A stretch of DNA of 64,000 bases from Macrostomum lignano (Eukaryota). A model generated the notes under the pieces. That model had not been told where the DNA came from, did not search any database, and was given only the letters and a program-made list of their open reading frames with translations. The DNA lies in assembly GCA_002269645.1 (NCBI GenBank), contig NIVC01002171.1, positions 1 through 64,000 of the forward strand. The letters run 5' to 3'. The position numbers were made by a program, and so were the translations under genes. This document shows positions 1-47,697 of the stretch, piece by piece; position 1 is the first letter of the stretch, and each line of letters opens with the position of its first letter.

Positions 1-391
1 AGTGAAATTTTTATGTGAAAAAAATATTTAAAAAATGAACTATTATTCTATAACAGGAAACGACATTTATTGTGAAAAATATATATAAAAAAAATGAAGG
101 TAAACTATTCCTACATCGGAAATGGCCGATTAATGAACTTAATGAAAATTTAAGTTTGATAACAGTTGAACAAATGTCAATAATAATATTAGTAACAATT
201 ATAGTAATAATATTGTTTTTGTTTGTTATAAAAATTTACTACCATGTTGTCTCAAGTAATTGTTCGAACTTAGTTCGCTGATATTAGTTGGTTCTCATAA
301 AACGAACCCAATATTTCTTCACCGTCCTTATCAGCAATTATATAGGTTGTAGGATTGGTATTTAAAACTTTACTGATAGTAAATTTCTCAC

Positions 392-1171
392 TTATCTTCC
401 AATATCCTTTTCTTCCTTTTTCAAACTTATCTTTCCATTTATAGATATAAACAGAATCACCAACCTTAAAAGATTTCTTTTATTTTTTTCAAATTTTCCA
501 AAAGTAACTTTAACGTTTTCAGGATTGTTATAAGCTTGTTGAGGAGTCATCTTTATAGCTGAATGATATGAATTGTTATAATCTTTCACTACGTCTGGTA
601 ATATTTTTACCCACTTTTGGTTACCATTAAGACTAAACTGAAACCATAATTTCTTACCTAAAGTTCGATTAAATCTTTCTATTAATGCGTTTTTACTCTC
701 TCCATAAATAGAATAAATTTTATTAATATACTCCCCATTCGCGTCTTTTTTCCTTTCTTTTCCTTTTTCAAAATGATACAATTTATACATATGAGGATTG
801 TAAAATTCTTTTCCTTCATCAACACACAATCTTTCGCTTTTTTCTCCAAGACTTCTAAAAGCAGCAGCAACCTCCTCTCCCTTTTTGGATTTTAAAGGAA
901 CAGCCCACGCGTATCGAGTAAAACCATCTAATATGGTTAAGATATATTTATATCCTCTTTCGTTCGGCATCGACATTAAATCAGCATACCAAATTTCATT
1001 CTTTTTGAAGTTCATGATTTTTCTATAAAATTTAGGTTTTCGATATTCTTTATGAAGAATCTTTGCCTCATCAGAACTTAACCCACCACCACTTAATAAT
1101 AAACACTCGACACAATTATTTCCATGTTGATTATAATTAATTCCCAAACCAAATTTAACTTTAGACTGCAA
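392..1171 (-). pseudogene. Polinton retroviral-like (rve/DDE) integrase; C-terminus frameshifted, continuing to about 255
   Basis: WYADLMSM...YKYILTILDGFTRYAWAVPLKSK, DEGKEFYN, IERFNRTL and YNNSYHSAIKMTP motifs. The typical C-terminal tail (PTTY..D.DGEEILG.FYE) is in another frame near 290-470. Confidence 0.9.
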
Positions 1172-1909
1172 AATCTTTTAACCATCCACCTAGTTAATCT
1201 TTGCCCTACCGATAATCCCTGCAAGTTATCTAATCCTTGAATCATTTTTTGATCGCGCTTCATGTTTTAATCTTAATGCTTCCTCGGGCGGGTTCTTGTC
1301 AGCATCTCTATATGCTAAGTCGTGATAGTATGCTAACCAATCAATCCCATTTATTGGAATTGAATCAGATTTTGGAGTATTGTCAGGATTTAATCTCAAA
1401 TCTAAGCGAGTGCCGGGTAGTTTACCCTCAATCTTTCGAAAGAGGCTGGAGCACACCTTAAGCGGCGATAATTACCGCCCATCTCCGTCTGCTCTCTGAA
1501 CCTTCTCCTTATATTTAAAATACTTAGGAGCTTGGCTGCGCATTGCCACCATGTCTTCAAGCTTTTTACCTTTGGGAAGAGGAGTTACCTCTGTTCCTTC
1601 AAAAGATTTCTCAATTGAAGTGGTACTTGAAGCTGTATGACGGGTTTCACGCAATTTGGAGATGTCGCCACAAATAGTGACTAGCAAGGACATTGCCTTC
1701 CTCACTCAGGCCACGGGATAACCTGTGAAGTTCATTGATGGTAGGTGTAGCTCACCCGTATACCTCCCAGTAGTAAATATTGGTGGTAAGCTTGTTAATC
1801 CTTTTTGAACATCTAAAAATCCTCCTTCAAATACTAATTGATCGTTCCGAAGGAACGCGGACTTCGCCCGATCGAACCTTTGGTTCGCATGCGTCGCATG
1901 ATTGCTCAT
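1140..1909 (-). CDS. Parvovirus-type phospholipase A2 domain protein, split by a group I intron (exon 1 1909-1721, exon 2 from 1417); two frameshifts near 1255 and 1175
   Basis: Joining the exons gives GELHLPSMNFTG|PGTRLDLRL...IDWLAYYHDLAY, which restores the YxGxG-type Ca loop and the DxxAxxHDxxY catalytic motif. The downstream ...ILQSKVKFGLG is recovered across the frameshifts. Confidence 0.88.
1418..1720 (-). ncRNA. Group I self-splicing intron, IC1-like, 303 nt, no internal endonuclease ORF
   Basis: P1: exon CAGGU with IGS GCCUG (1711-1707), U.G pair at the splice site. P3: CAUCUCC (1664-1658)/GGAGAUG (1486-1480). P4: UGCGUG/UGCGCA. P5abc has an A-rich bulge and a GAAA loop. P6 has CCUAAG..UAAGG. 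P7: G-A(bulge)-GAGCA (1496-1490)/UGCUCC (1453-1448). P8, P9 and P9.0 (AG/CU) are also present. Confidence 0.9.
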
Positions 1910-2309
1910 TTTTTATAGCCTTAAAAATACATGATAGCACCAATTGTTTTGCAAATTCTTCAATTGTTGGTTGTTTAACAAATTTAGTTTTATTATCAAT
2001 AGCAGCTAAGTATCTTTTATTTGTCCAATGTTCAGACTTTTTCATATGATCTTCGTCTTTGTAATTAAATGAAGAAGCAGGAATAAAATGATCAATATGT
2101 AAAGCACCACCATAGTCTTTTGGAACATAATAATGTTTTGTGAAATTTAACCAATCAATAAAGAATTCAATTGAGCAACCAAGGTAATCAATAGTATGAT
2201 TATTTTTTCGAGCATTATTTGATTTTAATAGTTGATTTATTCTATTTCGTGAGGTGATAATAAGTTTGTAATTTTCATCAGTGACTTTTTCAATATTGGA
2301 TTTGGAAGC
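1827..2309 (-). pseudogene. HNH (beta-beta-alpha-Me) homing-type endonuclease, N-terminus disrupted
   Basis: The frame of ORF 1827-2045 stays open upstream to a stop at 2310-2312. It reads ...SRNRINQLLK...TIDYLGCSIEFFIDWL...LHIDHFIPASSF...HWTNKRYLAAIDNKTK, matching the HIDH..P..F...H..N..L...N.K pattern of viral and phage HNH nucleases. Confidence 0.75.
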
Positions 2310-2533
2310 TTATCAATGTTATGTGTAATCGTTTTAGGTATTTTACAATCTATTCCAACTCTTAATTTATCTCAATTATTTTTAGGTATTTCAATTGGCT
2401 CAATATCAGGTTTTGAATTGATCAGGAACTTATCAATACTTTTAGCAATTAAATTATATCTTAAAAAAGAAAGGAAAAATATAAATCTTTAAGAGATGTT
2501 GCAAAACAATATAAAAATCAATTATATTTATAT

Positions 2534-2791
2534 GTGCAAAAAATATTGGATGACGGAGAGATAACGATTCATGAATTATCAACCGCGGTTGAATTATATG
2601 AAAAATATTTAAAAGATAGAAATAGAATTTTAGATGTTGAAACTTTTACCGATATGGAATTAAAAGAGTTGAGACTCGATAAACCCAAAGCTCCACCTAT
2701 AGATACATTAGGTATTTACGAACCTGAAACTATTGCTACTGGGGCACAAAGCCCGCGGTCAGGAAGTGCGGTAGAACTTCAGGTTGTTTAG
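2534..2791 (+). CDS. Small Polinton hypothetical protein
   Basis: 85-aa ORF; the ILDDGEIT..E motif resembles small ORFs I recall from Polintons. Confidence 0.45.
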   Translation: MQKILDDGEITIHELSTAVELYEKYLKDRNRILDVETFTDMELKELRLDKPKAPPIDTLGIYEPETIATGAQSPRSGSAVELQVV

Positions 2792-3271
2792 TTTTTCTAA
2801 TGCATATGTTATATATTCTTCCCAAAGTGGTAACTCTCTTCTGATCCTAGGTTTAAATTTTTTATCAATACATAAAAATTCCAATGACTTTTTCAATAAC
2901 ATTTCGTTAGGTATGTTACCTATCCTTATAAACTTTGTATTCTCTCGAATAAGAAAATTGAAATAATATCCAACTAAAATTAAAATCCTTTCGGAGTCTT
3001 TCGAACTTAATCCCTTTCCTTTATTTAAATGGAAAAAGTTATTATATAAATAAACATTATTTCCGGGAATTAAAATTGGATCAGAAATGTCTCTTGTAAG
3101 ATTTCTTAAAATTGTGTTTTTAAAATAGTAATATGAGTTTTCAATCTTTTTTGTTTTTTCAAATTGATATATTTTAGAACATGAATAACACATATGATAT
3201 ATATCTCCGTTTGCTGTTTGCCCTCTGTGCATAGTCACGTTACATTTATTACAAACATAAATGTCTTTCAT
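2759..3271 (-). CDS. Polinton hypothetical protein with N-terminal CxxC...CxxC zinc ribbon
   Basis: 170-aa ORF with CNKC...CYSC; AT-rich codon usage like its neighbours. Confidence 0.55.
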   Translation of the reverse strand: MKDIYVCNKCNVTMHRGQTANGDIYHMCYSCSKIYQFEKTKKIENSYYYFKNTILRNLTRDISDPILIPGNNVYLYNNFFHLNKGKGLSSKDSERILILVGYYFNFLIRENTKFIRIGNIPNEMLLKKSLEFLCIDKKFKPRIRRELPLWEEYITYALEKLNNLKFYRTS

Positions 3272-3297
3272 TTTTTTGTTATTTTTTTAGATTAAAA

Positions 3298-3627
3298 ATG
3301 GAGAGCTGGTTCAAAACCGATTCTAATGTGATTAATTATCTCACACCCAATATGTTGGAGAATAAAGAATATAATATTGTATGTTTGAGACAGGTTAAAT
3401 TTATTGGGCTTCAATCAATATTTTTACAATTAGATGGGCAAAAAATTTTATGTCTAAGCGGAGATGATGTTAAAAATTTTCCTGTTTTAGTTATTAATAA
3501 ACCTAAAGCGTTTGTTATGAAATACTGCAACGAGGGTGGATTGCAATTTAAACTAAAACAAACAAATAATAAAAAGAGTGATAGGACTGTAAAATTGGCG
3601 GCTGTTTGGGAGGATGACCCCGAATAA
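3298..3627 (+). CDS. Polinton hypothetical protein
   Basis: 109-aa ORF, tightly packed, with an A-rich AAAAATG start context. Confidence 0.55.
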   Translation: MESWFKTDSNVINYLTPNMLENKEYNIVCLRQVKFIGLQSIFLQLDGQKILCLSGDDVKNFPVLVINKPKAFVMKYCNEGGLQFKLKQTNNKKSDRTVKLAAVWEDDPE

Positions 3628-3648
3628 GTTTAAATTTTTTATAAGAAA

Positions 3649-4038
3649 ATGGATACGATAAAAATCCTTATCACTAAAGAGCGTGAACTTAATGATATTA
3701 ATAAAAAAATAAATATAATTATATCTCAGAAATATCATGAGTATGGGGACGATATGTTTCCCATCCGATATGAGATAGATAAAAGAAAACGTTTTTTAAG
3801 ACAAGATATTGTTTATGCTGAAATAGTAATTGAAATTGAAATAGATAGATTGGTTAGAAAAATAAAAAAACTTAGGAAAAAAATAAAGGATTGTTTAAGT
3901 TACCCTGCCGACTGTGAGGATAATTGGTGCTCAATAATATCGAACGAAGTTCGCGACCCTGTGGGTCGATATGAAATTGAAGTTAATGATTTGCTCAAAC
4001 AATTACATGCTTTAGTTTTTTACAGACCCGATAAGTAA
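3649..4038 (+). CDS. Polinton hypothetical coiled-coil protein containing one 28-bp hairpin insert
   Basis: 129-aa ORF with an AAAATG start. Confidence 0.55.
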   Translation: MDTIKILITKERELNDINKKINIIISQKYHEYGDDMFPIRYEIDKRKRFLRQDIVYAEIVIEIEIDRLVRKIKKLRKKIKDCLSYPADCEDNWCSIISNEVRDPVGRYEIEVNDLLKQLHALVFYRPDK

Positions 4039-7000
4039 TTTTTCTGTTAATCTCTTCCAGTTATTCAAGACTTTTTCCTTATTTAATTTTTTAAGTTCTT
4101 TTGGAAATGTTGAATAATAATTATCTATATCTTTTTCATATTCTAGAAATGTATTATATTCACAATCACATTCGGATTCACAATCACAATCGTAATAATA
4201 ATTATTTATTGCCGCCTTGTATTCATTATATTTGCTTATTATATCTTCTTTTTGTTTTTTATCTTTTATCATATTTTTTATCTCTTCTTTTAAACCATAT
4301 GGATATGTTTTAATTTTATCATCTAAATACCTTTTATCATCAAATGGACTTAATGTTTTTTTATCTGTCTCGATGACAAACATCTGATGCTTATCTGAAT
4401 TTAATCGATATTGTGGAGCATGATAATTTTCAATTGTATTAAGGTAATCTAAAAGTACGTTTTTATAATCATCAAATGTTATCTTTTTTACTGCTGCTCT
4501 TGATACCCCTTTTATTTTTTTTACCTCTCCCTCCTGTCCTAAAACCTTAAATGCATAGCATTTTGATCTTATTGCTATAAACTCGGTTATGATTTTGCTA
4601 TTTAATTCATCTTTCATTTTAAGTACAACTTTTTTATTTTGATCTGATTTTAAAGGATGGTTATCCGGATAGTCTGATGTGTCCAATGTATCCTTAATTT
4701 TTTCCATATCTTTATAGACATCGAACCTTTGGTTCATGGACTCCGTCCGATCATCTGTTTCAACCTTAAATACCAAACTGTCGGTGTCTGCATATATTGG
4801 ATAGTTATCTGGCCATGTTTTATTTATAACATCATAATAATATTCATACATTACCAGCTTTGCATAATCTAAAACAACCATTCCAATAAATATTGGTTTA
4901 AGAAATTTTGTTGTTTTATTTCTCATATGAATACCCATAAAGTTATCATCAAATTTTATAAAGTCTTTAAAGTTAGGTTTTGAGAAATATTTCTTTGCTT
5001 TATCAATATCCTTTTCTAAATGGAATTGGGTTCTATCTCTAATATTTTCAACCGTTTTTCCATAAAAAGCATTATTCATTAATTTCCAATAATCTTTCTC
5101 AAAATTTGTTTTTGACATCTGTCTCTGATTTGAATTAAAGTCAATATATTTAGCTAACCAATCTTCCTCAATAAACGATATTGTTCGATGTACTTTAGAC
5201 ACTTTTAATCCCTGCTTTTCATAAAATTGTAGAAGCTTATAATGCACTACATAGTTTTTCTTATCATGTAAATTTAATATTAATTTTTTTGTTGCTAGAT
5301 GTTTTGTATTATCTACTTTAAGATAATCTTTTTGTGTTTGTGATAAATCATCTTCATTAACTGAACAATGCTCTGGAGCTAAAGGATATTTATATGTTTT
5401 TGCTTTTGCTTCTCGAGTATATTGCAAATCCACCTCTACAATACAGCCCCTTCCTTCGGGAATATTTTTGTAATAATCGGGGTCATCTTCCCATTGGAAA
5501 TCAGCTATTGGTAATTTTTGTTTCATACAACCACCGTATAAATTGTTTGCATCTAGATATAATACATATGATGATTTTTCTTTTTTATTATAATTTGGAA
5601 GATACTTATTATTTACTTTAGTATATCTATCTCCTAGTACACCCGAGAATCCACCGCGAATTCCTCTCTCAATCATTAACAACATATCATGATCAGTTAG
5701 TAAATCAATCTTAACATCTGTATGTTTCAAACCACAAGCCCATGTTAATCCCGGTGCACTGAAACAATATGCGGGATCAATTTTAAAATTCTCATATGTA
5801 TGATTCCTAAAGTTTTCAAATGCATCAGCTAATAGGAGAACATCTGCTTTAAGATATAGATTATGATAATCTTTAAATGTTTTACAATTAAAGTATTTCC
5901 ATACTTTTTGAGCGTGTTCATAATCCGATTCACTTATGTTTGTTTGTGATAATGTTGAATAAAACTTTTCAATTGGGGGTAATTCGGTATGAAAAAATAC
6001 GTCTTCAGATGTTACATATTCATATGGATAGATGCCCTTACGAGTTAATAGCATTAGTTCTTCCTCGGATAGTTTTTCTTTTTTGAAACGATTCAATAGT
6101 ATTGGAAAGTTTTTCTTTACTATTTCTAAATCCCATGGTTTTGGAACTAATGATGAAACAACATTTGCTAAAGATGTTGATAAGAATCTCAAGGAATCTA
6201 GAAAAACTAGATGGGAGTATTTCTTACCATATGTTATTGATATGTAATTTTCTGATGTTTTAGGTAATATATTTATTTCATATTCATCCTTTCCTAAATG
6301 AAGCAATTCTCGAACTAAGAAATGAAAATCATATCCGGAACCATTATGAAAAAATACTGGTATTTCCTTACATCCTTTTCCTTCTTTTGCATTACATGAT
6401 CTACATGCTGCCCCTCGATAATTTCCTGTTAGATGACAATGTTCTCGTATCTTATTTTTCTTACTTAAATATCTTTTGCACATAAAACAATTTGTTGCAT
6501 TTTTATAATTGTCTCTATCCTTATTTGTCATATTAATATTTTTTGATAATTTATCATATTGATTTTGAATATATTCAAATACATTTACTAATGATTCTGC
6601 CATGTGCTTAGCTGCATCATTACCGTGGTAAGTAATCATCCTTGATTTAAATATATGATCAGCTACGGAGTGTACATATAAACAATAACTATTAGGAAAC
6701 TGTTGTGCTAATTTTTTTGTGCATTCACCGTCCCGTAGGGTCGCATGCTTTGCATGACCGTCATCAGATACTGTTTGTGGTTCTTTTAAGGGAACATTTG
6801 TTGCTTCAAAATCAGCATATATTACTATTGGTTTTTTAACTGCCATATAATGTTGTTGGAACTTTAGGGTTGCATCTTCAGATGCTGGCATTATAGCATT
6901 AGTAAATTTGTGATCTAAACAAAATCGTTGGTGGTTTTTAAGAGCTGTTTCATCCTTTTTAAATGTAAAACAATTTCTACATAGTGGATATCTATTTCTA

Positions 7001-7767
7001 TTTTCTCTTAAAAAAGAACTAATATCTTTTATGTATATATAATGTGTTTCATTTTCGCGCTGCATGTACAAAAGATCGATTTGATCTGGTGCTGTTATAT
7101 CAGTTGCTGGCTTAACAAGATAACACCTTTTCTTATACCATTCTGGATCGACCTGCTGAATTTCTTCTAGATCTTCTGGTTCTTCAATTGTAAAAACATT
7201 AATATTTAAACCATTCATTTTTTCAATCTTATATATATCATCTATTGCTACTGGGTATGAGATGTTTTTCATTATTATTTCATCCTCATATTGTCTATAA
7301 TTATATATTTTATTAATGTGTGATTCTACTTGATTGTGATATTTATGAATTAATAAACACCATAATAAACATTTATTATCTTTATTGTCTGGATTTATAA
7401 TCATAGGTGATTTAAATTTGAGCTTCATATGTGATCGTCCTTTAAGAATTTCTATAGGTGCAATCTTTACTATTGCTGAATTACATGAAACAAATATAAA
7501 CCCAGATCCGTTTTCTGTCATCTTATCTATCCATTCATCAAACTCAGCTTCTATTTGATCGAATTGATTGTTGTAATTTCCCATTGATAATAATGTTTTA
7601 TATGATTCTTGTGAAAAGTTATTTATTACTTCAATTTCTGAATTTGCATTAAGAATATTTGGTTTTTTAAATTCTGTTTCAACTTCTATTTTATACTTAA
7701 TTGGCTGTCGTTTGTTATTTGGCCTTATAGTATAATTGTTTAATATGGTCTTTAATTTATCTTTCAT
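4012..7767 (-). CDS. polB: Protein-primed family B DNA polymerase (pPolB), intact
   Basis: 1251 aa. Motifs: YADFEA, HCHLTGNYRGAAC, FHNGSGYDFHF, KGIYPYEY, YLKADVLLLADAFE, YLDANNLYG, KLMNNAFYGK, YADTDS, KIKGV. Confidence 0.97.
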   Translation of the reverse strand: MKDKLKTILNNYTIRPNNKRQPIKYKIEVETEFKKPNILNANSEIEVINNFSQESYKTLLSMGNYNNQFDQIEAEFDEWIDKMTENGSGFIFVSCNSAIVKIAPIEILKGRSHMKLKFKSPMIINPDNKDNKCLLWCLLIHKYHNQVESHINKIYNYRQYEDEIIMKNISYPVAIDDIYKIEKMNGLNINVFTIEEPEDLEEIQQVDPEWYKKRCYLVKPATDITAPDQIDLLYMQRENETHYIYIKDISSFLRENRNRYPLCRNCFTFKKDETALKNHQRFCLDHKFTNAIMPASEDATLKFQQHYMAVKKPIVIYADFEATNVPLKEPQTVSDDGHAKHATLRDGECTKKLAQQFPNSYCLYVHSVADHIFKSRMITYHGNDAAKHMAESLVNVFEYIQNQYDKLSKNINMTNKDRDNYKNATNCFMCKRYLSKKNKIREHCHLTGNYRGAACRSCNAKEGKGCKEIPVFFHNGSGYDFHFLVRELLHLGKDEYEINILPKTSENYISITYGKKYSHLVFLDSLRFLSTSLANVVSSLVPKPWDLEIVKKNFPILLNRFKKEKLSEEELMLLTRKGIYPYEYVTSEDVFFHTELPPIEKFYSTLSQTNISESDYEHAQKVWKYFNCKTFKDYHNLYLKADVLLLADAFENFRNHTYENFKIDPAYCFSAPGLTWACGLKHTDVKIDLLTDHDMLLMIERGIRGGFSGVLGDRYTKVNNKYLPNYNKKEKSSYVLYLDANNLYGGCMKQKLPIADFQWEDDPDYYKNIPEGRGCIVEVDLQYTREAKAKTYKYPLAPEHCSVNEDDLSQTQKDYLKVDNTKHLATKKLILNLHDKKNYVVHYKLLQFYEKQGLKVSKVHRTISFIEEDWLAKYIDFNSNQRQMSKTNFEKDYWKLMNNAFYGKTVENIRDRTQFHLEKDIDKAKKYFSKPNFKDFIKFDDNFMGIHMRNKTTKFLKPIFIGMVVLDYAKLVMYEYYYDVINKTWPDNYPIYADTDSLVFKVETDDRTESMNQRFDVYKDMEKIKDTLDTSDYPDNHPLKSDQNKKVVLKMKDELNSKIITEFIAIRSKCYAFKVLGQEGEVKKIKGVSRAAVKKITFDDYKNVLLDYLNTIENYHAPQYRLNSDKHQMFVIETDKKTLSPFDDKRYLDDKIKTYPYGLKEEIKNMIKDKKQKEDIISKYNEYKAAINNYYYDCDCESECDCEYNTFLEYEKDIDNYYSTFPKELKKLNKEKVLNNWKRLTEKLLIGSVKN

Positions 7768-7817
7768 TTGTTTAAAATATTCTTTATAATTTGTATTTAT
7801 ATCTATATCTATATATA

Positions 7818-8009
7818 TTACTTCAGCTCCATTTTGTCCTTGTGGTTGGGGTTATTAATATCATTTAATTGTCTTTCTAAACGTATCTCATTTTCTGCCC
7901 TAATTCTTGCTTCTATTTCAGCCCTATCGGCAATTCGTTGTGCATCGATTTGAGCTATTAATTGTGCTCTAAGTTCAGGGTTGTCGATTTGAGCTAAAAT
8001 TGCTTCCAT
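7818..8009 (-). CDS. Small coiled-coil hypothetical protein
   Basis: 63-aa ORF with an A-rich start context. Confidence 0.4.
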   Translation of the reverse strand: MEAILAQIDNPELRAQLIAQIDAQRIADRAEIEARIRAENEIRLERQLNDINNPNHKDKMELK

Positions 8010-8093
8010 TTTATAGAATAAAATTTATATAATGTTTGAATTATTGATTTTTTAATTTTGTGTTTTTGGTGTCCAGACCCTCCCCCCAGGAGC

Positions 8094-9080
8094 CTATTCG
8101 AGATCTGCTTTTGGTAATAGCAATCCATTGCCCATAACGTTTGAATTTAAGAAAATTCCTGAACCTGCTTTTGGTCTCATTTCGAGATATAATCCGCTTC
8201 CGTCGTGTTTTTCAATGATATTAAAATCTTTTCCTAATTTATTAAAAATTTTCTGAACAGCTGGTCTAAAATTGGATCCAATATTGTCAAAAAATCCTTT
8301 AGCTTTCTCACCCGTTTTTTCTAAAGTTTGACCAAATTCATGTAGTTTATCTGCTACAACTCCACTTCCTTGGGTTGTTCCTTTTAGTACCAAACCATTC
8401 CCGTGATTTGTTCCTTGCAAGAGTAAACCTTTTCCGGCTGCTAACCTAGCTTCTGCATTTCTTTTTTGCTCTGCTGTTGCTGAACTACTATTAATGGTAT
8501 CAATAAGTTTCTGTTTGAATTGTGCGTCCTGCGTTATTTGCTGTCTTTGAAATTCTGCATCTCGTTTGGCTTTTTCGTCCGCAGCTTTTTTGTCATTTAC
8601 TGCTTTTGCAATTCCAGCTGCTCCGCCAGCAACTCCTCCAGCTGCTCCAATTCCTGCAAAAATTATTGGGAGCAAAGCTGCAAGGGGTAAGATTCCCCCC
8701 TGTTTCGCTCTTAACTCTCCTAGCTGTTTTACATTATCATGAATTCTTTTTCCGGCTAAACCGACTGCTCCAGCTGCACCAAGTCCTAAAAGAAGCGGTA
8801 GAATGGGTAGTAATCCGCCGTCCTTTTTAGTGTGAGTCTCCATTAAAAATTTCACATCGGAGTCTGTCAACCTATAATTTCTGCCGCGATTCTTAAAGGA
8901 TATTGGCCTTCCTTCTTGTGCATATTTTGCTGCGAGTTTAAATGTATCGATGTCGTAGTCAAACTTTTTACCTAATCGATCCAATCTTTTTAACATTGTG
9001 TGGCTATGTTTATTATCATCTAGATCTAAAGTATCTACAATTTCTCCTATAAAATATAAGCGGTCGTTATCTGTGTCCAT
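8094..9080 (-). CDS. Polinton Gly/Ala-rich putative core or membrane-active structural protein
   Basis: 328 aa with repeated GG-hydrophobic segments (DGGLLPILPLLLGLG, QGGILPLAALLP..GIGAAGG), resembling adenain-processed core proteins of Polintons. Confidence 0.55.
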   Translation of the reverse strand: MDTDNDRLYFIGEIVDTLDLDDNKHSHTMLKRLDRLGKKFDYDIDTFKLAAKYAQEGRPISFKNRGRNYRLTDSDVKFLMETHTKKDGGLLPILPLLLGLGAAGAVGLAGKRIHDNVKQLGELRAKQGGILPLAALLPIIFAGIGAAGGVAGGAAGIAKAVNDKKAADEKAKRDAEFQRQQITQDAQFKQKLIDTINSSSATAEQKRNAEARLAAGKGLLLQGTNHGNGLVLKGTTQGSGVVADKLHEFGQTLEKTGEKAKGFFDNIGSNFRPAVQKIFNKLGKDFNIIEKHDGSGLYLEMRPKAGSGIFLNSNVMGNGLLLPKADLE

Positions 9081-9164
9081 TTTTATATTGTTAAAATTTC
9101 TTTAATCCTTTTCCACCTTTAATAGTATTTAACATTTTATTAAAATCCTGAATATCTTTATTAC

Positions 9165-9488
9165 TTATTGGTGCGCTTTTCGTGGGGTTTCTGTTGGTTG
9201 TGCGGCTTGTGCCAGCTTTAAATCTTTTATTGCATTTATTTGTGAGAGGGTGTCGTTAAAATCTCTCAATTTCTTTAGTTCTTCTGCCGCTCTAGCTGCT
9301 TCAATTCCTCCTTTTACAGCATTTGTTATAGAGCCTGCTGCAGAGCCAGCTTGCCCTATAAGCCCCATATTGTCTTTAACAAAATTTGCTGCTGTTCCAA
9401 CCACATCAAAAAGCCCCTCACCTCGGTATTCAACTGGGTCTCCTACCTGCATTTCATTCAGATTTTGCAAATGAGTAACGTGTGTCAT
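9165..9488 (-). CDS. Polinton small Gly/Ala-rich protein
   Basis: 107 aa with GEGLFDVVG...AGSAAG amphipathic segment. Confidence 0.5.
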   Translation of the reverse strand: MTHVTHLQNLNEMQVGDPVEYRGEGLFDVVGTAANFVKDNMGLIGQAGSAAGSITNAVKGGIEAARAAEELKKLRDFNDTLSQINAIKDLKLAQAAQPTETPRKAHQ

Positions 9489-9526
9489 TTTTTGTTCTAT
9501 TTTTAGTAACAGAAAAAGATTGTCTG

Positions 9527-9710: not shown

Positions 9711-9976
9711 AGTAGTATATAAAAAGACGCTTCTAGATCAGACCTTATTTTAATGGCCGTTTGTAAGGTCTTAAGAGGGGGACGCGAGGGGGTGTTGGGG
9801 AGTGTTTGGAAGTGTTGGGAAGTGATTTTTATTGTTAGGGGTGATTATGGGTGATTAGATGTATTAATGGTGTTTAGATGTGTTTTTTTATTTACCCCCC
9901 GTGTCCCCCCTCTAGACCCTTAAAACGGTCATTAAAAAAGTGCTCTGGGTCTAGAAGCGTCTTTTTATATACTACT
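9711..9976. repeat. Polinton terminus with an internal inverted copy of itself
   Basis: agtagtatataaaaagacgcttctaga (9711-9737) is the exact reverse complement of 9950-9976; imperfect similarity extends to about 85 bp. Confidence 0.9.
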
Positions 9977-34893: not shown

Positions 34894-35168
34894 TTTATTT
34901 ATTTGCTATTAATTAAGCGAGCAACTCTACCACAATTCTTAGAATCGTTAACAGGTATTAACCAGCCCCATCAAAAATCCCAGACGCCCTCGGCTTCACC
35001 TCTGGGGTCACCTGGAACAGTCTGGACGCCGTGGCGGACCGCGACTTCGCCTCGGAGTTCCAGTTCGCAGCCGCCATGCTTGGCAACCACCTGAGCCGCC
35101 TCGCCGAGGACCTGATCCTCTTCTGCAGCAAGGAGTTCGGCTTCGTCACGCTGTCGGACGCGTACAGC

Positions 35169-35200
<32 letters not shown>

Positions 35201-35572
35201 CGCGGACAGTCTGGAGCTCATCCGCGGCAAAACCGGACGGCTGTGCGGCCACCTGGTGTCCCTGCTCATGGTGCAGAAGTCCCTGCCCAGCGCCTTCAAC
35301 AAGGACCTGCAGGAGGACAAGGAGGGCTTGTTCGACTCAGCTGACACCGTGTCAGCCGTGGTTCGAATCGCCGACGGTGCACCCGGAGGCCTGCGCCGGC
35401 GCCCTCAGCTGCGACGTGCTGGCCACCGACCTGGCCTACTATTTGGTGCGCCGCGGGGTGCCGTTCAGGGAGGCCCACGCCGCCTCCGGGCGTTGCGTGG
35501 CGCTGGCCGAAGCCAAGGCGTGTCAGCTGCACCAGCTGACCTTTGAGGACTTCCGGACTGTCAGGTGAGCAG

Positions 35573-38700: not shown

Positions 38701-39235
38701 CTAACTGAGTCCCAAGCTTTTTAGCTGATAAAAAAATTTTTTTCTCATTTATTTCTTCCGAAAAATTTTAAAATCTTCAGAGCTTCAGTCTGTCCTATTC
38801 ATGCATCGCCACTCTGCTCTATCATCTCTAACTCACGAACTGAGCGCTGCAGTAGAATTAAATTCATTTATTGATGCAAACTGACGGTGGGCCTTGTGGC
38901 TTCGACAACACCTGCGCAACCGATAATAGATCTCGACTAAAGCTCATGCATCTGTGAGCAGCTGCTGCAAGCTTGATGTTGCAGTGAAAAAGCAATTTGA
39001 GGCTCCGAATGATCTCACAGCTCACTGATTCTGAATAATCACAGAGTTAATGTATGGAGCTGATGGATTTCAATCCGACTAATGCATCATCTGACAGAGC
39101 TCTGTTTACCGATATGCAAGCCGCTGCCTGCTGAGAGTCTCCATGGCAACGCATCAATAAGGCTGCTGTTATTTAGCCTCTCTCTCGCACAGAGATTCGG
39201 CAATCTTCTGCCAAACTGACAAACCCAGCCTGGCC

Positions 39236-40063
39236 ATGCCTCTCTGCCGGATCCTCTGCGCTGCTCCGATCCTGAGCTGCCTGATCTGCGCCGCTCTCTG
39301 CCGGGAGTTCCAGATCTCGGACCTCGGCTGCTTCGTTGACGGCACGAATGGCGTGAGAGACGTCGGTGGCATGAAGAACATCGGCCTCACACGGATCGGC
39401 AGCTCCGAGGTATCTCAGATATACGATTCTATCAACTGCGGTCAGATGACTCGCGAGGTGTGCAGCAGCGCCTGCGCTCTGGGCGGCTTCCAGTTCGCGG
39501 CTCTGCAGGCCGCGTACTGGTGCCACTGCGGCAACTCCTACGGGTCGCAGGGCGCTGCTCCTTACTGGGAGTGCAGCGATACCTGCAGTGGAAACTGGGG
39601 CCAGAACTGCGGAGGTATGTGGCGAAACCGGGTGCTCCGGCTGAGCTACACCAACGGTGAGTTGCTGCTGCTGGTGGCCACTTGTTTAATTTTTGGTCTT
39701 CGTATGTTGCTGCATTGGATTTTGGCGACAGACAAACAAACTTTTAAGCAGACAATCAGATGCCTTTCAGTGTGGCTCAACTCAACTCAACTTCAAATTA
39801 TTTCATTGCAAATCGAAGGTAATGACTTCTTTGTTCGCGGCAACCGGAATTTCGTCGAACTCAACAACCCTGATGCGCCGAACTTTACGACTGTGAGCGC
39901 TCCGAGTCGGATCCAGTGCGTGTCTCTGTGCTCCAGTAAAAGTTCCGGTTGCCAGGCGGTGATCTTCAGCCAGCAGCAGCGCCTGTGCCACCTGCTGGAG
40001 TATGCTGCGGTCCCGGCCGCCTTCAGCAGCGAAAGCAGCGGCGACTTCTTTGTCCGTGGCTGA
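39236..40063 (+). CDS. Secreted WSC + PAN/apple domain protein, copy 1 (intron 39657-39818)
   Basis: Hydrophobic leader; WSC pattern CSSAC..GFQFAALQ..YWCHCGN...C...CSGN..QNCGG..RN; PAN pattern C...C...CQAV.F...RLCHL; GT-AG intron in phase. Confidence 0.8.
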   Translation: MPLCRILCAAPILSCLICAALCREFQISDLGCFVDGTNGVRDVGGMKNIGLTRIGSSEVSQIYDSINCGQMTREVCSSACALGGFQFAALQAAYWCHCGNSYGSQGAAPYWECSDTCSGNWGQNCGGMWRNRVLRLSYTNGELLLLVATCLIFGLRMLLHWILATDKQTFKQTIRCLSVWLNSTQLQIISLQIEGNDFFVRGNRNFVELNNPDAPNFTTVSAPSRIQCVSLCSSKSSGCQAVIFSQQQRLCHLLEYAAVPAAFSSESSGDFFVRG

Positions 40064-41084
40064 GTGCGAATGAAGCGGATGCTGGTGCAGCTGAGCAGAG
40101 CAGACGAGCTGTAAGAACCGAAATTTAGAGGCAAATCAAAACAAACAGTGTCAACTAGCAAGCATACCTAAGCCTACTCAAAGACTTTAAAGTACTCAAA
40201 AGTACTCAAAGTACTAACAGCTGTAGACGTCTGCGTCTGAAATCAACTGGCCGAAATTGAACGCAAACCTATTTTTGCTTCTCATCCGAAAATGCTAAAC
40301 CTTTTTTACTTTTACCAAAATGTTTCAATGTACTTTCCTTTATAATCTTTGCGAATGCACTTCTGTGTGTTAGGCATTCGATTTCTGCTTTTGTTCTGTT
40401 AATTGTTGATTAGAACAGAGTAGTTTTGCGTGCAATCGGATACTTTTTGTCAGGATTCAAAACCAGAGAAATTGATTGGCGTGTTATAGTTATTTATTGC
40501 CTTTGGTTCCCTCTCAAACAGCAGCTTTGTAATCTTTTGAAGACTCAACTGTCCTGCTACTCGGATACAAGCGGCTGGCCGCCGAATTCTGCACACCTTC
40601 AGTTTTTTGCAAAGGACACAGGATTTTACATTTCTTTTTTGAAGCCCGAAACTTACGAGTACTCACCTTTCAATGCACTTTTTGATTCAATTTAATTTAG
40701 TGGTTCGTACTGGTGAAATTTATTTAGTCAAGACAGAATTGCGAACTTATTATTTGAAGTACTTTTTGTATCAATATAATTCCTCAGTTCATTGCAATGA
40801 AAGTTTTTAGTCATTTGCGGACTTCCTCCTATTGTTTTTCTGACACTGAGAGTTGATATTTTAACATAATCGCTAATCATCAATCACTAAACTACCAGGT
40901 AATTCTACTCCTGCAAGCTTTGCAAGCGCTACTAACTACAGTAGCTTCACACAGTTATTAGAAGAAAAATTCTGTAAATCGATAAGGACAGCGAGGACAA
41001 AAGAGCTGAGGCTGGGGTGCCGCATGCAACGTGGCGATGAAGGTAACAGAAGTACTCGACAGTGAGTCATGAAATGGAGCAGCC

Positions 41085-41275
41085 GTTCGCCAGAGCAGCC
41101 GTTCGCTAGAGCAGCCGTTCGCCAGAGCAGCCGTTCGCCAGAGCAGCCGTTCGCTAGAGCAGCCGTTCGCCAGAGCAGCCGTTCGCTAGAGCAGCCGTTC
41201 GCCAGAGCAGCCGTTCGCTAGAGCAGCCGTTCGCTAGAGTAGCCGTTCGATAGAGCAGCCGTTCGCTAGAGTAGC
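41085..41275. repeat. 16-bp minisatellite
   Basis: (gagcagccgttcgc[c/t]a)n. Confidence 0.9.
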
Positions 41276-41351
41276 GAGGGCCAACTTACTCCAGCCAGGA
41301 TTGGGAACTCATTTAGTCAAATGTAAGAAACAGTCCACCACTGCGCAATGC

Positions 41352-42002
<651 letters not shown>

Positions 42003-43610
42003 TAAAAATAGCAAAAATGTCAGAATAGAATATATATATTAACATAGAATACGCATCATAAAGTTCGACTTAATCAGCAACGAGAACCTGCAGCGGACCA
42101 ACCCAAAGCCCAGCAGGCCAAAGCAGCCATCCAGCTTCGTCGGCCCAATCGATACGGAAGAGCGGGAGCTTCAGCCACATCGGCTGCATTTGGCGCGGCT
42201 GCAAGTTCCGACATGTCTGCTCCTTCTGCTACGAGTCCACCAGCGCCAGATCTGCTCGTCAAAAACTAAATTGTTGCTGACTGAGGCTTTCAACTCGCAG
42301 CGCAGCTCGGCTGGCTGACGATAAAGTCAAACTCCCACCACTCTCCAACTGGCCCTTTTCAATGCCCCTCGAGTACATCGCCTTTTCTACTGACCTCGCT
42401 AAAGCTACTTGGAAAGATTAACTGACTGCTGAATAGCATCCGCTACGACTTCCGACTCCGCAACCTGATATGCTGGACACAGCTGCAGCAACGTCGGAAT
42501 TTCATAACTATTCCTCAGCGAACACCCAACGTAAAGCTGGTTGAGTATCAGGTGCGGCAGCAGTTGCTTTATGTGACCGCGCACGGAATGGAAGCAGGGC
42601 TCGTGGTGTGAGAGCCTGACACGCCCGGTGGCTGCAGCAGCTCCTGCTCTGCTCTGCTGGTGGGCAGCAAAACTCGGTCCGGAAGATGCAGAGCTGGAAG
42701 CCCTGTAAAAAGTCCTCAATTTATTTCGGTTAAAAAATCACAGAAAACTTCAAGTCATGTTACACACGCTGGAGAAGAATTGTCATCAGCCTGATGAGCC
42801 GCCAGGATCACTCTCGGGCTCCGCTCTCCGCTCAGGCGGTAACAAGCGTATTTGATGCCTCTGGGCCTTTTGATGCGGCACAGCAGAGTTTGGAATATTT
42901 TATTGAACAAAATTGATCAGTAAGCCTGTGTTTCCTTCGTGCAACTGGGCATCCCTCGACTCCCAGTGTTGCATGCACCTGACTCTTCGGGACGTTTCAT
43001 TAAAAAATAATTGCTTTGTTCTACATTCCGTTAAGCAACACCATTGCGCAGTGGGCGAATGCTGCTTACATTTGACTAACTGAGTCCCAAGCTTTTTAGC
43101 TGATAAAAAAATTTTTTTCTCATTTATTTCTTCCGAAAAATTTTAAAATCTTCAGAGCTTCAGTCTGTCCTATTCATGCATCGCCACTCTGCTCTATCAT
43201 CTCTAACTCACGAACTGAGCGCTGCAGTAGAATTAAATTCATTTATTGATGCAAACTGACGGTGGGCCTTGTGGCTTCGACAACACCTGCGCAACCGATA
43301 ATAGATCTCGACTAAAGCTCATGCATCTGTGAGCAGCTGCTGCAAGCTTGATGTTGCAGTGAAAAAGCAATTTGAGGCTCCGAATGATCTCACAGCTCAC
43401 TGATTCTGAATAATCACAGAGTTAATGTATGGAGCTGATGGATTTCAATCCGACTAATGCATCATCTGACAGAGCTCTGTTTACCGATATGCAAGCCGCT
43501 GCCTGCTGAGAGTCTCCATGGCAACGCATCAATAAGGCTGCTGTTATTTAGCCTCTCTCTCGCACAGAGATTCGGCAATCTTCTGCCAAACTGACAAACC
43601 CAGCCTGGCC

Positions 43611-44438
43611 ATGCCTCTCTGCCGGATCCTCTGCGCTGCTCCGATCCTGAGCTGCCTGATCTGCGCCGCTCTCTGCCGGGAGTTCCAGATCTCGGACCTC
43701 GGCTGCTTCGTTGACGGCACGAATGGCGTGAGAGACGTCGGTGGCATGAAGAACATCGGCCTCACACGGATCGGCAGCTCCGAGGTATCTCAGATATACG
43801 ATTCTATCAACTGCGGTCAGATGACTCGCGAGGTGTGCAGCAGCGCCTGCGCTCTGGGCGGCTTCCAGTTCGCGGCTCTGCAGGCCGCGTACTGGTGCCA
43901 CTGCGGCAACTCCTACGGGTCGCAGGGCGCTGCTCCTTACTGGGAGTGCAGCGATACCTGCAGTGGAAACTGGGGCCAGAACTGCGGAGGTATGTGGCGA
44001 AACCGGGTGCTCCGGCTGAGCTACACCAACGGTGAGTTGCTGCTGCTGGTGGCCACTTGTTTAATTTTTGGTCTTCGTATGTTGCTGCATTGGATTTTGG
44101 CGACAGACAAACAAACTTTTAAGCAGACAATCAGATGCCTTTCAGTGTGGCTCAACTCAACTCAACTTCAAATTATTTCATTGCAAATCGAAGGTAATGA
44201 CTTCTTTGTTCGCGGCAACCGGAATTTCGTCGAACTCAACAACCCTGATGCGCCGAACTTTACGACTGTGAGCGCTCCGAGTCGGATCCAGTGCGTGTCT
44301 CTGTGCTCCAGTAAAAGTTCCGGTTGCCAGGCGGTGATCTTCAGCCAGCAGCAGCGCCTGTGCCACCTGCTGGAGTATGCTGCGGTCCCGGCCGCCTTCA
44401 GCAGCGAAAGCAGCGGCGACTTCTTTGTCCGTGGCTGA
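43611..44438 (+). CDS. Secreted WSC + PAN/apple domain protein, copy 2 (intron 44032-44193)
   Basis: Same ORF translation as copy 1. Confidence 0.8.
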   Translation: MPLCRILCAAPILSCLICAALCREFQISDLGCFVDGTNGVRDVGGMKNIGLTRIGSSEVSQIYDSINCGQMTREVCSSACALGGFQFAALQAAYWCHCGNSYGSQGAAPYWECSDTCSGNWGQNCGGMWRNRVLRLSYTNGELLLLVATCLIFGLRMLLHWILATDKQTFKQTIRCLSVWLNSTQLQIISLQIEGNDFFVRGNRNFVELNNPDAPNFTTVSAPSRIQCVSLCSSKSSGCQAVIFSQQQRLCHLLEYAAVPAAFSSESSGDFFVRG

Positions 44439-47400
44439 GTGCGAATGAAGCGGATGCTGGTGCAGCTGAGCAGAGCAGACGAGCTGTAAGAACCGAAATT
44501 TAGAGGCAAATCAAAACAAACAGTGTCAACTAGCAAGCATACCTAAGCCTACTCAAAGACTTTAAAGTACTCAAAAGTACTCAAAGTACTAACAGCTGTA
44601 GACGTCTGCGTCTGAAATCAACTGGCCGAAATTGAACGCAAACCTATTTTTGCTTCTCATCCGAAAATGCTAAACCTTTTTTACTTTTACCAAAATGTTT
44701 TAATGTACTTTCCTTTATAATCTTTGCGAATGCACTTCTGTGTGTTAGGCATTCGATTTCTGCTTTTGTTCTGTTAATTGTTGATTAGAACAGAGTAGTT
44801 TTGCGTGCAATCGGATACTTTTTGTCAGGATTCAAAACCAGAGAAATTGATTGGCGTGTTATAGTTATTTATTGCCTTTGGTTCCCTCTCAAACAGCAGC
44901 TTTGTAATCTTTTGAAGACTCAACTGTCCTGCTACTCGGATACAAGCGGCTGGCCGCCGAATTCTGCACACCTTCAGTTTTTTGCAAAGGACACAGGATT
45001 TTACATTTCTTTTTTGAAGCCCGAAACTTACGAGTACTCACCTTTCAATGCACTTTTTGATTCAATTTAATTTAGTGGTTCGTACTGGTGAAATTTATTT
45101 AGTCAAGACAGAATTGCGAACTTATTATTTGAAGTACTTTTTGTATCAATATAATTCCTCAGTTCATTGCAATGAAAGTTTTTAGTCATTTGCGGACTTC
45201 CTCCTATTGTTTTCTGACACTGAGAGTTGATATTTTAACATAATCGATAATCAGCAATCACTAAACTAATTCTACTCCTGCAAGCTTTGCAAGCGCTGTT
45301 TCATTAACTGGTTACTAACTCTTTTAAGGCTTATTAAGCCGTTAATACCCATGTGAATGTTACAGTAACTATATTTTTTTACGTTTTAATTACAAAGTTT
45401 AGCCTTTCAACAACAACGCTTAATCTGTTTTGCATACTTGTCCTGTTCATTTACTACAATGAACAACTGTATCTGCTTGTAACTATCTATACTTCGAGAT
45501 TTGTGTGTCGTCTGAAACGAAAGAGTTGATAGTTTTAGCGCGAGTTACAAACGTACAAATATTACAAACTCAATAAAAGTTTACAACCGCAACAAATTCA
45601 CGGGGCGCTTTCATTAGGCAAAAATTTCACTTTGCTGAAAAGCACTCTCTTTCACTAGGCCGAAACTTCACATTGCCAAAAAACCATTTTAGCAGCCCCT
45701 TTCAATACGCCGAACCTTATGGAAGAGCGTGCTCGGCAATGTGAAGTTCCTCTGTCCTCTCTACATTCCTCTATACCCTCTATCCTCTCTAGCCTCTCCT
45801 CTCTACCCTCTCCTCTCTACCCTCTCTTCTCTACCCTCTCTCTTCTCTAGCCTCTCCTCTCTACCCTCTCTCCTCTCTCCCTACTTCCTTTTTCTCTTCC
45901 TTCTCTCCTCTCCTCCCTCTCTCCCTTCTCTCGTCTTTTCCCTCTTTTCTCCTCTTGTCTTCTTTCTTATCTCATCTCTCTCTGTCTCTCATGTTTCATG
46001 AGCTTGCGCTGAATTTTTCATCTGGCCCTTGAGGAAAAAAGTTTGCCAGCCTCTGGGTTAAAGCTTTGAGTCAGCTTTGCTTCTCGCAGCGCAGCACAGC
46101 GAGCCAATAGGTCGGATTCCCTGGCTCTTACTTCCCTGGCTAATTTAGACTGCCATAACTTTGCCCCAAATAAATATATTTATTTCAAACTTGAGTCGAT
46201 TGCGCCTTGATATGTTTTCTGTCCTAACATGGAGTCTCAGCTTCATAACTCAATCAGGACAGGACAGAAACTATGAGCATGTGAAGTTTGCCTGATTTTT
46301 ATCTATTCTTTCGCTTGTGGAGCAGTAGAGCAGTTAGAGAAAACAGGGAAACAGAGAAAGCTATAGAAAACAGGGAGAGAGGAGAGATGAAAAAGGCAGT
46401 AGACAAGAAGACAGATAGAGCAGCAGAGAGGACAGATGAAAGGGATGCAGGGCAGATGCAAGAGAGGGAGGATGAAAAAAGGGTACAGCGGAAGAGAAGA
46501 CAGGGATAACAGAGTGAGAGTATAGACAGATCGAAGGGGGGGAGGGAGATCAGTGTGAACAAAGGGAGAGAGGGAGAGTAGACAGATAGAAGGGACTGTG
46601 GGCAATAGGGTGGAGAGGACAGATGGAGAGAAAAAGAGACAGTAGAATCCTGCTGAAATAAACCGACGGAATCGAACTGGTAGACCTTGTTTGGTTTTTC
46701 CTAACTTCTGTTGCATTAGCTATTTAAATATTTTTTGTTAGATTTTAAATCAAAGAAGCAAAAGAGATACAGGGTCCAAATTCTGTGGGTTTAAATTCCA
46801 GCTGTTAAAACAGCGTGTTTTCACCAAAACAAAATATCTAAACAATCAATAGTTAGTTTTGCCTGCAGAGAAATATCCAAGCTGCGCAACGGCATCCTGG
46901 AATAAAAAATCTGCGATTTTAGTGGGCACTACTCAAAGCTGTAACAGCTGCTGCAGCATTTTTCAGATCATTGATTATGGATTTCTGGCCAACAGCATGA
47001 AGTCAAGCATTGCAGACACTGCTTGTAGTTTCACCCAGTGAGGAGCCCTTAATTCTACTGCTAAGGGGCATTTTAAGCCGGCATGTTCGATCAGCAGGTT
47101 TAGCAGCAATTTAAAATAGATGGCAAAGACAAGCCCGCTTTTCGGGAATGTGGAGTGAATTTACAATTAATTGCATTTAGAATAGTCGAGAAGTTTCAAT
47201 TTATGAGTTGTTCTAAAGAGGACATTTGTACAACTTTCCGAGTAGAGAAGGATTTCTTAAGTTGCGAAGTGAAGTCTGCCTTAGAGTAACTGGCTTGTAT
47301 TTCCTTGCTCCCTGTCTGGGGATGGACGTGCAATGAATTTGACATTAATAACTTATTATTGGCAGATTTAAATTATTCGCACTTCGTGCAAGTGAATGCC

Positions 47401-47697
47401 GCGTCCTCCAGGTGGTCAAGACGGTGAGCCGTTCTTCACTTCTGCGGCGTGATGTGTAATTTACATTTACACAAACAGACGGGGGCCTGTTGGCTTTGAC
47501 GCAATGGCGGCAGCCAACGGATTCCAATCAGGAATCATGCAACTGTGCAAATCCGTCACGGGTTCTGTATTGAAGGCCCATTGTCTCTGTGTTAGCAAAT
47601 ATAATGCGCTTCACACAGCTGTGATAAGGCCTCTCGCTGCGAATCCGCTCTCTCTCTCTCTCTACTCTGAGTCCGAACTCCGCCAATTTCTCTGAAA

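Follow-up and report, generated by a model that had tools for sequence, protein, structure and literature searches.

A real group I intron was found in a new setting, a protein gene of a Polinton element in the animal Macrostomum lignano, where it is part of a larger intron-nuclease system whose splicing and cleavage are predicted activities. The window, by which we mean the full 64,000-nt stretch of contig NIVC01002171.1 that was analyzed, carries both the intron and its host gene on the minus strand. The original prediction, that an animal-integrated Polinton carries a group I intron within a protein-coding gene, was supported, with corrections; for example, the host is not a stand-alone PLA2 gene. 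The intron is made up of the following features.

1418..1720, minus strand: group I intron of type A (ORF-less, IC1-like core, terminal A), from an RF00028 score of 64.2 bits, comparison with intron-less alleles, and the register of P1 and P9.0
1707..1725, minus strand: P1, exon positions 1725-1721 with guide 1711-1707 and a U.G pair at the 5' splice site (pairing check)
1480..1664, minus strand: P3 (1664-1658 with 1486-1480), enclosing P4 (1653-1648 with 1542-1537) and P6 (pairing; covariation with types B and C and metagenome locus L105)
1555..1632, minus strand: P5abc extension, comprising P5a, an A-rich bulge, GAAA-capped P5b, and P5c (folding and pairing check)
1449..1494, minus strand: P7 (1494-1490 with 1453-1449), with the guanosine-binding G-C pair kept and P8 between the strands (RF00028 alignment and pairing)
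1418..1418, minus strand: omega position, A in the window copy (comparison of copies)

As had been predicted, the 303-nt insert (minus-strand positions 1720-1418) is richer in GC than its flanks, with 45.5% compared to 33.4%, and it separates the codons of ...FTG from those of PGTRLD.... Stops are present within it as well, although there are two in the exon frame and not the one that had been noted. The suggested covariance-model check yielded an RF00028 match spanning 1427-1730 on the minus strand, above the cut-off of 50 bits (E 4e-16). An RF00028 scan of the whole window under default filters had missed the intron. P1 with its terminal U.G pair, P3 (7/7 Watson-Crick pairs), P4, P5, P5a, P5c, and P7 (5/5) all pair as claimed. 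The sequence also shows P8, P9, and P9.0, together with the GAAA loop of P5b, the A-rich bulge, and a receptor of near-canonical form. The minimum free energy fold of the intron was modest (z -2.33), being equaled by 2 of 100 shuffled sequences. From these results, the insert was confirmed to be a group I intron.

Its description as IC1-like applies to the core. Features of subgroup IC1 that are present include P2/P2.1, P5abc with an A-rich bulge, a GNRA loop L5b, and the receptor. Since just 31 nt lie between P7 and omega, the intron has no P9.1, P9.2, or P13, and the missing P9.1/P13 periphery makes it IC1-like rather than IC1. In the available text of one source, P13 is described as common but weakly conserved in group IC1 (PMC9223047).

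The gene that is interrupted by the intron, together with the ORF upstream of it, comprises three features.

1721..1909, minus strand: exon 1 of a PLA2-like/integrase fusion gene, 63 codons, ending in F-T-G (reading frame; intron-less alleles)
270..1417, minus strand: exon 2, encoding the rest of the PLA2-like domain and an rve integrase, frameshifted in the window copy (rve match at 392-1015, 33.4 bits)
1827..2300, minus strand: upstream ORF with what we take to be an HNH-like motif (no Pfam match; start position uncertain)

The host had been identified as a PLA2 gene. A PLA2-like domain is indeed there, fused to an rve integrase, and because the PLA2 frame runs on into the integrase, it is a PLA2-integrase fusion that the intron interrupts. 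The PLA2-like family PF08398 scored over its cut-off on both intron-less alleles that were scored, as did the rve integrase PF00665 in the fusion gene. This fusion form is common to many outside proteins. The intron is inserted in the YxGPG motif, where it separates the codons of the Gly-Pro pair; four natural intron-less alleles (L089, L090, L092, and L094) read straight through this motif. In the window copy, exon 2 is broken. The first stop occurs after 63 codons, and the stop-to-stop open frame measures 81 codons, compared to approximately 400 in most copies. This break may be private to the window copy or contig, since four public runs differ there.

The ORF with the HNH-like motif fills the slot that is held in other copies by a free-standing endonuclease of the Eco47II family, and among family-A elements HNH-like and Eco47II-like ORFs alternate at this position before exon 1. 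A role of the HNH-like ORF as the collaborating nuclease was rejected, as this ORF has no Pfam match and also precedes two intron-less family-A alleles.

A survey for intron-plus and intron-minus alleles, which had been proposed to follow up the prediction, found both. It made use of 145 of the 150 exon-1 matches listed, leaving out five that were truncated, and 138 of the 150 exon-2 matches listed, leaving out twelve without a usable partner; the resulting figures are figures among the matches listed and are biased to the window's family. Among the matches listed, the 138 exon pairs comprised 125 with a gap of 297 to 338 nt, 10 without a gap, and 3 with a longer one. The gapless, that is, intron-less pairs belonged to family A in three cases and to family B in seven, again among the matches listed. 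On the same basis, empty alleles accounted for 3 of 130 family-A pairs.

Three intron types, A, B, and C, occupy this one site. Type A introns are 297 to 307 nt long, or approximately 333 nt where P5 carries a 30-nt insertion (two such loci were read). Type B introns, found at 28 places, are 836 to 895 nt long and score 72 to 91 bits with RF00028. Type C introns are approximately 325 nt long (23 pairs by gap, two read) and score 30 to 32 bits, against the cut-off of 50. The type C core differs from those of types A and B and presumably resembles subgroup IE. The P7 variant of the window intron had been interpreted as a compensatory change, and the comparison of types bears this out. P7 is GAGCA/UGCUC in type A, GACUU/AAGUC in type B, GACUG/CAGUC in type C, and GACUA/UAGUC in the metagenome locus L105, with each of the four variants paired at 5/5 positions. 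The guanosine-binding G-C pair in P7 is kept in all four, and changes in P3 and P4 across the intron types maintain pairing. P2.1 and P5abc are common to types C and A (L091, 82-410 in minus-strand numbering; L093, 110-435). The combination of these A-like elements with a different core suggests recombination between introns at one site. We also observed that the 30-nt, hairpin-like P5 insertion is common to some type A and type B introns (L066, L067, and L032), and that a similar sequence lies upstream of the free-standing nuclease in L086 (540-560).

The element around the host gene is a Polinton, in which the window contains one further large ORF.

4012..7767, minus strand: putative protein-primed PolB ORF of the window Polinton, 1251 aa, its polymerase motifs being what we take to be those of PolB (Pfam match to Endonuclease_7 only)

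A double jelly-roll capsid gene and an A32 ATPase gene were found in a family-B element, L185. Neither is found in the window, the contig of which begins partway through the element. One terminus was recognized in 16 of 22 family-B loci. These 16 loci showed 14 different flanks, and their sequences were 94 to 99.7% identical to L032. Because of these distinct flanks at such high identity, the type-B carriers must have transposed recently. Inverted AGTAGT-type terminal sequence recurs some 100 to 240 nt inward of the ends (L031, 373-480; L032, 352-460; window, 9711-9737 and 9950-9976) and could form a terminal hairpin. Beyond the element, at 9900-64000, the window holds what we presume to be BEL/Pao-like, Gypsy-like, tyrosine-recombinase, and non-LTR retroelements. 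We also take approximately 34960-35550 to be an argininosuccinate-lyase-like exon and 39161-48285 to contain tandem WSC-like ORFs.

Microbial eukaryotes and their viruses are the usual carriers of group I introns, as would be expected if the elements were a contaminant or a free virus of a protist or fungus that had been sequenced along with the animal. We regard this explanation as highly improbable. The assembly is that of an animal, with 86 Wnt matches, and contigs C506, C952, and C67 each hold both Wnt exons and intron-bearing elements. The 14 distinct host flanks also speak against contamination, as do the more than 100 copies on many contigs and the presence of the stretch in 19 runs of one organism from 7 studies. 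These data support the conclusion that the intron-bearing elements are integrated in the animal genome.

The last base of the window intron (position 1418) is A instead of the canonical omega-G, a point that the original prediction had not raised. The register of this terminal A is fixed, since P9.0 and the intron-less alleles L092 and L094 set the intron ends. An upstream G, which would give an in-frame, G-ended junction, was considered as an alternative 3' splice site; it lies inside the P9 stem and was ruled out by the structural register. After 15 duplicate fetches were removed from 60 loci, 45 distinct type-A places remained, a sample biased to the window's family, with A at omega in 32 and G in 13. 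Omega is G in types B and C and in metagenome locus L105.

For the window's type only, the terminal A might mark a dead or nearly dead ribozyme, whose carriers would be non-autonomous or would use a downstream integrase start, and would spread with help from other copies. Besides the replacement of omega-G, the broken exon 2 of the window copy and a Met between the PLA2 part and the integrase core speak for such a reading. So do contigs from two runs guessed to be RNA, in which the unspliced 3' junction is bridged (X2, 1205-1662; X6, 1383-1570), although these may represent DNA or precursor. A joint skipping 1418-1720 was not found in the contigs of four runs, three guessed to be RNA and one of unknown kind, none of the runs being recorded as RNA. 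Since contigs drop rare forms, the lack of a spliced joint in them is not evidence of its absence. Loss of activity is harder to reconcile with the omega-A copies themselves. Their core helices are all intact, many keep approximately 400 open codons downstream, and the terminal A is found with several P2 and exon variants. According to the available text on the hexacoral ND5-717 intron, which has no omega-G, exons are ligated exactly, yet more than 70% remains unspliced (PMC6545197). Weighing these points, we consider a dead or nearly dead ribozyme possible, at somewhat less than an even chance. The window's omega-A form probably splices poorly or not at all, a judgment that is close to evenly balanced, and the particular copy in the window is broken in any case. 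Natural omega-A and omega-G sister introns, 99% alike, offer a ready comparison for 3' splice-site choice.

Type B introns contain an ORF of 228 to 233 codons, located in the P2.1 loop and reading on into the intron core. The window's type A intron has no nuclease ORF. Three copies of the encoded protein scored 28.8, 25.2, and 21.7 bits against PF09553 (RE_Eco47II), one of the three exceeding the cut-off of 25.9. In the predicted structural model, pLDDT was approximately 90 or more over most of residues 1 to 160, followed by a disordered tail. The best fold match of this model was EcoO109I (Foldseek, E 6e-5). EcoO109I was likewise best in VIA-align, with a Z score of 9.7 and an rmsd of 4.0 over 168 aligned residues; the next structure reached a Z score of 7.8 and AvaII scored lower. 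Identity to solved restriction enzymes was 13 to 14%. The type B ORF is therefore predicted to encode a PD-(D/E)XK endonuclease of the Eco47II family with an EcoO109I-like fold. A His-Cys box motif was not found in the nuclease alignment, in which the PD-(D/E)XK fold is predicted instead. The nuclease frame is open in 15 of 28 type-B loci. In the ORF-less window intron, approximately 77 codons are open in the frame of the nuclease tail (1418-1705, minus strand), possibly a trace of a lost ORF.

In family A, a free-standing paralog with approximately 65% identity to the type-B ORF is located directly upstream of exon 1. Many carriers of type A or type C introns have it there. Its matches fell within 200 nt of exon 1 in 36 of 40 cases, and all 32 with a measurable gap, that is, at least 32 copies, carry an ORF-less intron. 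The link between the nuclease and an occupied site rests on only three empty family-A alleles and is not significant. Many copies keep the frame of the paralog open outside the intron.

Relatives of this arrangement were found in other data. The metagenome locus L105 shares the host gene, the insertion site, the ORF position, and omega-G, with a nuclease that is 49% identical and an RF00028 score of 80.6 bits. Profile scans returned 10 viral and 80 metagenome loci; only L105 among them has the intron, the others being free-standing relatives with approximately 26 to 40% identity. The translated intron core was matched by 26 of 179 relatives, one match being spurious and 25 resulting from the C-terminal tail, many of these from one cluster. 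Two proteins, P0180 and P0182, begin with the 3' end of the intron read as protein. In a nuclease tree of 39 sequences, rooted at the midpoint only, 11 of 12 intron-associated rows grouped with the free-standing copy and one untailed row (support, 97/93). Scans of IMG/VR with a single nuclease, a PLA2 alignment, and a 17-nt intron stretch found no relative; the 17-nt stretch gave 13 matches, none extending beyond approximately 26 nt. Phage records gave no match, and an Atlas search returned viral clusters and restriction-enzyme families only. A cognate methyltransferase was not recognized in the partial element stretches that were read. Two side observations concern possible relatives of the introns. 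The protein P0209 starts with Met-Pro-Gly-Thr exactly at the 3' splice site, as would be expected if an ATG-ended intron occupied the site in another lineage. On a 79-kb metagenome contig, L145 668-760 weakly resembles the 3' portion of type C at the nucleotide level but has no RF00028 match.

Among the relatives of the predicted nuclease, EcoO109I recognizes RGGNCCY and AvaII recognizes GGWCC. The available text of one source ties Eco47II homologues to GGNCC (PMC10305163). Any Gly-Pro codon pair spells GGNCC, as the pair at the intron position does. Depletion of GGNCC was predicted from the Pfam family before any counting, and a second-order Markov model provided the expected counts for one stretch of the window.

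1..9500, no strand assigned: Polinton stretch without GGNCC (0 observed, 6.7 expected)

Of 136 words of the form abNcd, GGNCC was the only one absent from this stretch. Codon shuffling of its ORFs gave an expectation of 4.7 for the observed count of 0 (P = 0.01). GGNCC was also absent from two family-B stretches, for which 4.3 and 3.5 were expected, so that the three stretches, which are partly homologous, sum to 0 against approximately 14.5. Across 60 related loci, the bases aligned to the element, 134 kb in all, contained no GGNCC. Depletion was not seen in the part of the window that belongs to the host (155 observed, 170 expected). Each of four intron-less fragments of 600 to 700 nt contains exactly one GGNCC, at the insertion site. 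Carriers of type C encode an extra residue and lack Pro after the splice site, so that they would be free of GGNCC even once spliced.

The absence of GGNCC and the nuclease might both be unrelated to the intron site, the former reflecting low GC content, dipeptide bias, or a third-party restriction enzyme and the ORF being a passenger. The specificity of the nuclease is deduced from family and fold only, and CCNGG is low in the window as well (4 in 1-9500 versus 9.9 expected). Integrases show a generic deficit of Gly-Pro. Away from the insertion site, 21 outside PLA2-integrases whose motif is intact had Gly-Pro 2 times against 20.8 expected; in unrelated integrases, it occurred 16 times against 33.6, about half. 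Yet CCNGG is normal in family B (5 versus 3.3 and 7 versus 4.2 expected), where GGNCC is wholly absent as it is from the window stretch, the motif was named from Pfam ahead of counting, and the ORF position and site recur in L105. We thus hold an unrelated avoidance to be improbable. Around distant free-standing relatives of the nuclease (56 loci), avoidance was not consistent, with 324 GGNCC against 443 expected and 283 CCNGG against 572. These loci and the integrase controls weaken the generality of GGNCC avoidance, not the local result. Individual loci with a distant free-standing nuclease differ, L151, L164, L138, and L165 being almost without both GGNCC and CCNGG and L106, L119, and L145 without CCNGG only. 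The motif Gly-Pro is replaced in four outside PLA2-integrases (P0186, P0188, P0192, and P0210) by Gly-Ala-Gln or Ser-Ser-Gly, and these may be escape alleles.

We favor, with moderate confidence, a mobile group I intron system that parasitizes the PLA2-integrase gene of Polintons and would be driven by a short-site nuclease of restriction type. The nuclease would cut GGNCC in the manner of a restriction enzyme. The elements would have purged every avoidable GGNCC, leaving the one that is forced by the Gly-Pro codons. A cut at an intron-less element, repaired from an intron-bearing one, would amount to homing, and the ORF-less types A and C would rely on collaborative homing. Insertion of the intron would split GGNCC and so render the carrier immune. 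The intron RNA would then remove itself by guanosine-dependent transesterification to yield the PLA2-integrase mRNA, and the type-B ORF could be expressed from unspliced RNA. Several observations count against this scheme. Among them, intron-less alleles persist (10 of 138 pairs among the matches listed), and the host, in which GGNCC is not depleted, would offer millions of targets to a 5-bp cutter. Nuclear homing endonucleases require sites of 15 to 20 bp according to the accessible part of one source (PMC3679873). Since a 5-bp cutter would be toxic to the host, we favor expression of the nuclease limited to a viral phase or compartment.

The same host toxicity keeps alive another explanation, in which the nuclease would be mainly the element's weapon, aimed at rival Polintons, at a large virus infecting the same cell, or, during a lytic phase, at host DNA. 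The intron would then be retained as an immunity cassette that does the work of a methyltransferase, and homing would be a side effect. This explanation is compatible with most of the mobile-intron scheme and differs in the target of selection. Removal of GGNCC across the whole element is more in keeping with a restriction enzyme than with a homing enzyme of the classical kind, and many copies retain an open frame for the free-standing paralog, outside the intron. Gly-Ala-Gln for Gly-Pro in P0186, P0188, and P0192 looks like escape, and the available text of one report describes an intron endonuclease in interference competition in phage (PMC12908238). Nevertheless, the 11 intron-associated nucleases form one clade with the free-standing copy (97/93), which suggests long residence in introns, and no competitor was identified. 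We consider a role mainly as a weapon unlikely and continue to prefer the mobile intron system.

Nuclear group I introns are stated to be confined to the rDNA of microbial eukaryotes in the available text of two sources (PMC3679873 and PMC9223047), in which the rDNA introns have His-Cys nucleases with sites of 15 to 20 bp. In the available text of a third, group I introns are absent from animals save basal lineages and five sharks (PMC10964413). In a further source, as far as its available text goes, the sole reference to a group I intron is as the potential origin of an HNH domain (PMC10748475). A literature search, in which subscription journals are poorly covered, found no intron in an animal Polinton and no intron nuclease of the Eco47II family. 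The original prediction knew of no prior description, which holds for animals as far as this search reached. In protists, RF00028 introns of Polinton-like viruses were reported in 2025 (PMC12220804, available text), and the novelty is therefore narrower than first claimed. Those introns, in Rhodomonas lacustris, Paulinella, and Desmodesmus, are similar in lying in a protein gene of an integrated element and in their length of approximately 300 to 380 nt. According to the accessible portion of that report, their host gene lies upstream of the capsid gene and codes for a short protein, and the introns have no annotated nuclease (PMC12220804). Here, by comparison, the host is an animal, the gene is the PLA2-integrase, three intron types share one site, and the nuclease is of the Eco47II family.

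The IC1 and IE introns of nuclear rDNA, as far as described in the available text of PMC3679873 and PMC9223047, resemble those described here in the IC1-like core, P2/P2.1, P5abc, an ORF in the P2 region, and the presence of two subgroups at one site (S516). They differ in being limited to the rRNA genes of microbial eukaryotes and in having P13 and nucleases of the His-Cys type, whereas an mRNA gene, a PD-(D/E)XK nuclease, and the lack of P9.1/P13 characterize the present system. Homing enzymes with a restriction fold have been described from other families (PMC3424549, available text). I-Ssp6803I (PD-(D/E)XK) and I-Bth0305I (Vsr-like) are likewise restriction-fold nucleases in group I introns, although they are bacterial or phage enzymes of other families with a long target, 17 bp for I-Ssp6803I (PMC3424549 and PMC3239194, available text). 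Eco47II itself is listed solely as a bacterial type II restriction family in the accessible part of PMC3424549. The Polinton nuclease resembles Eco47II, EcoO109I, and AvaII in its Pfam family (above the cut-off in one of three copies), in its predicted fold, and presumably in a GGNCC-type site. It differs in that no methyltransferase was seen in the stretches read, protection apparently being afforded by site loss and intron insertion. Collaborative homing in phage, as outlined in the available text of PMC11296320, similarly pairs a free-standing nuclease with an ORF-less intron in the gene that is presumably cut. The system described here belongs to a eukaryotic integrating element, and its free-standing copy nests among intron-borne ones (midpoint root only), the reverse of the route proposed for phage. 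The hexacoral ND5-717 intron is likewise an animal group I intron without omega-G; it is mitochondrial, giant, back-spliced, and fixed in an essential host gene, unlike the window intron (PMC6545197, available text).

Well over 100 intron copies reside in a protein-coding gene within the chromosomes of an animal, on an element that moved recently. Whether animal cells splice a group I intron out of what is presumably a Pol II mRNA thus becomes a testable question. With its Eco47II-family affinity, the linked ORF would represent a new family of intron-borne nuclease. Tentatively, and at a little under even probability, we envisage a lineage of animal-integrating DNA viruses that practices restriction without modification. 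An enzyme that cuts GGNCC would be tolerated there, the site having been purged except at the Gly-Pro codons, where interchangeable ribozyme introns would confer immunity, and synthesis of the integrase would depend on self-splicing, including that of the A-ended form. If true, a short-site cutter combined with the purging of its sites and with immunity through introns would form a link between restriction and homing.
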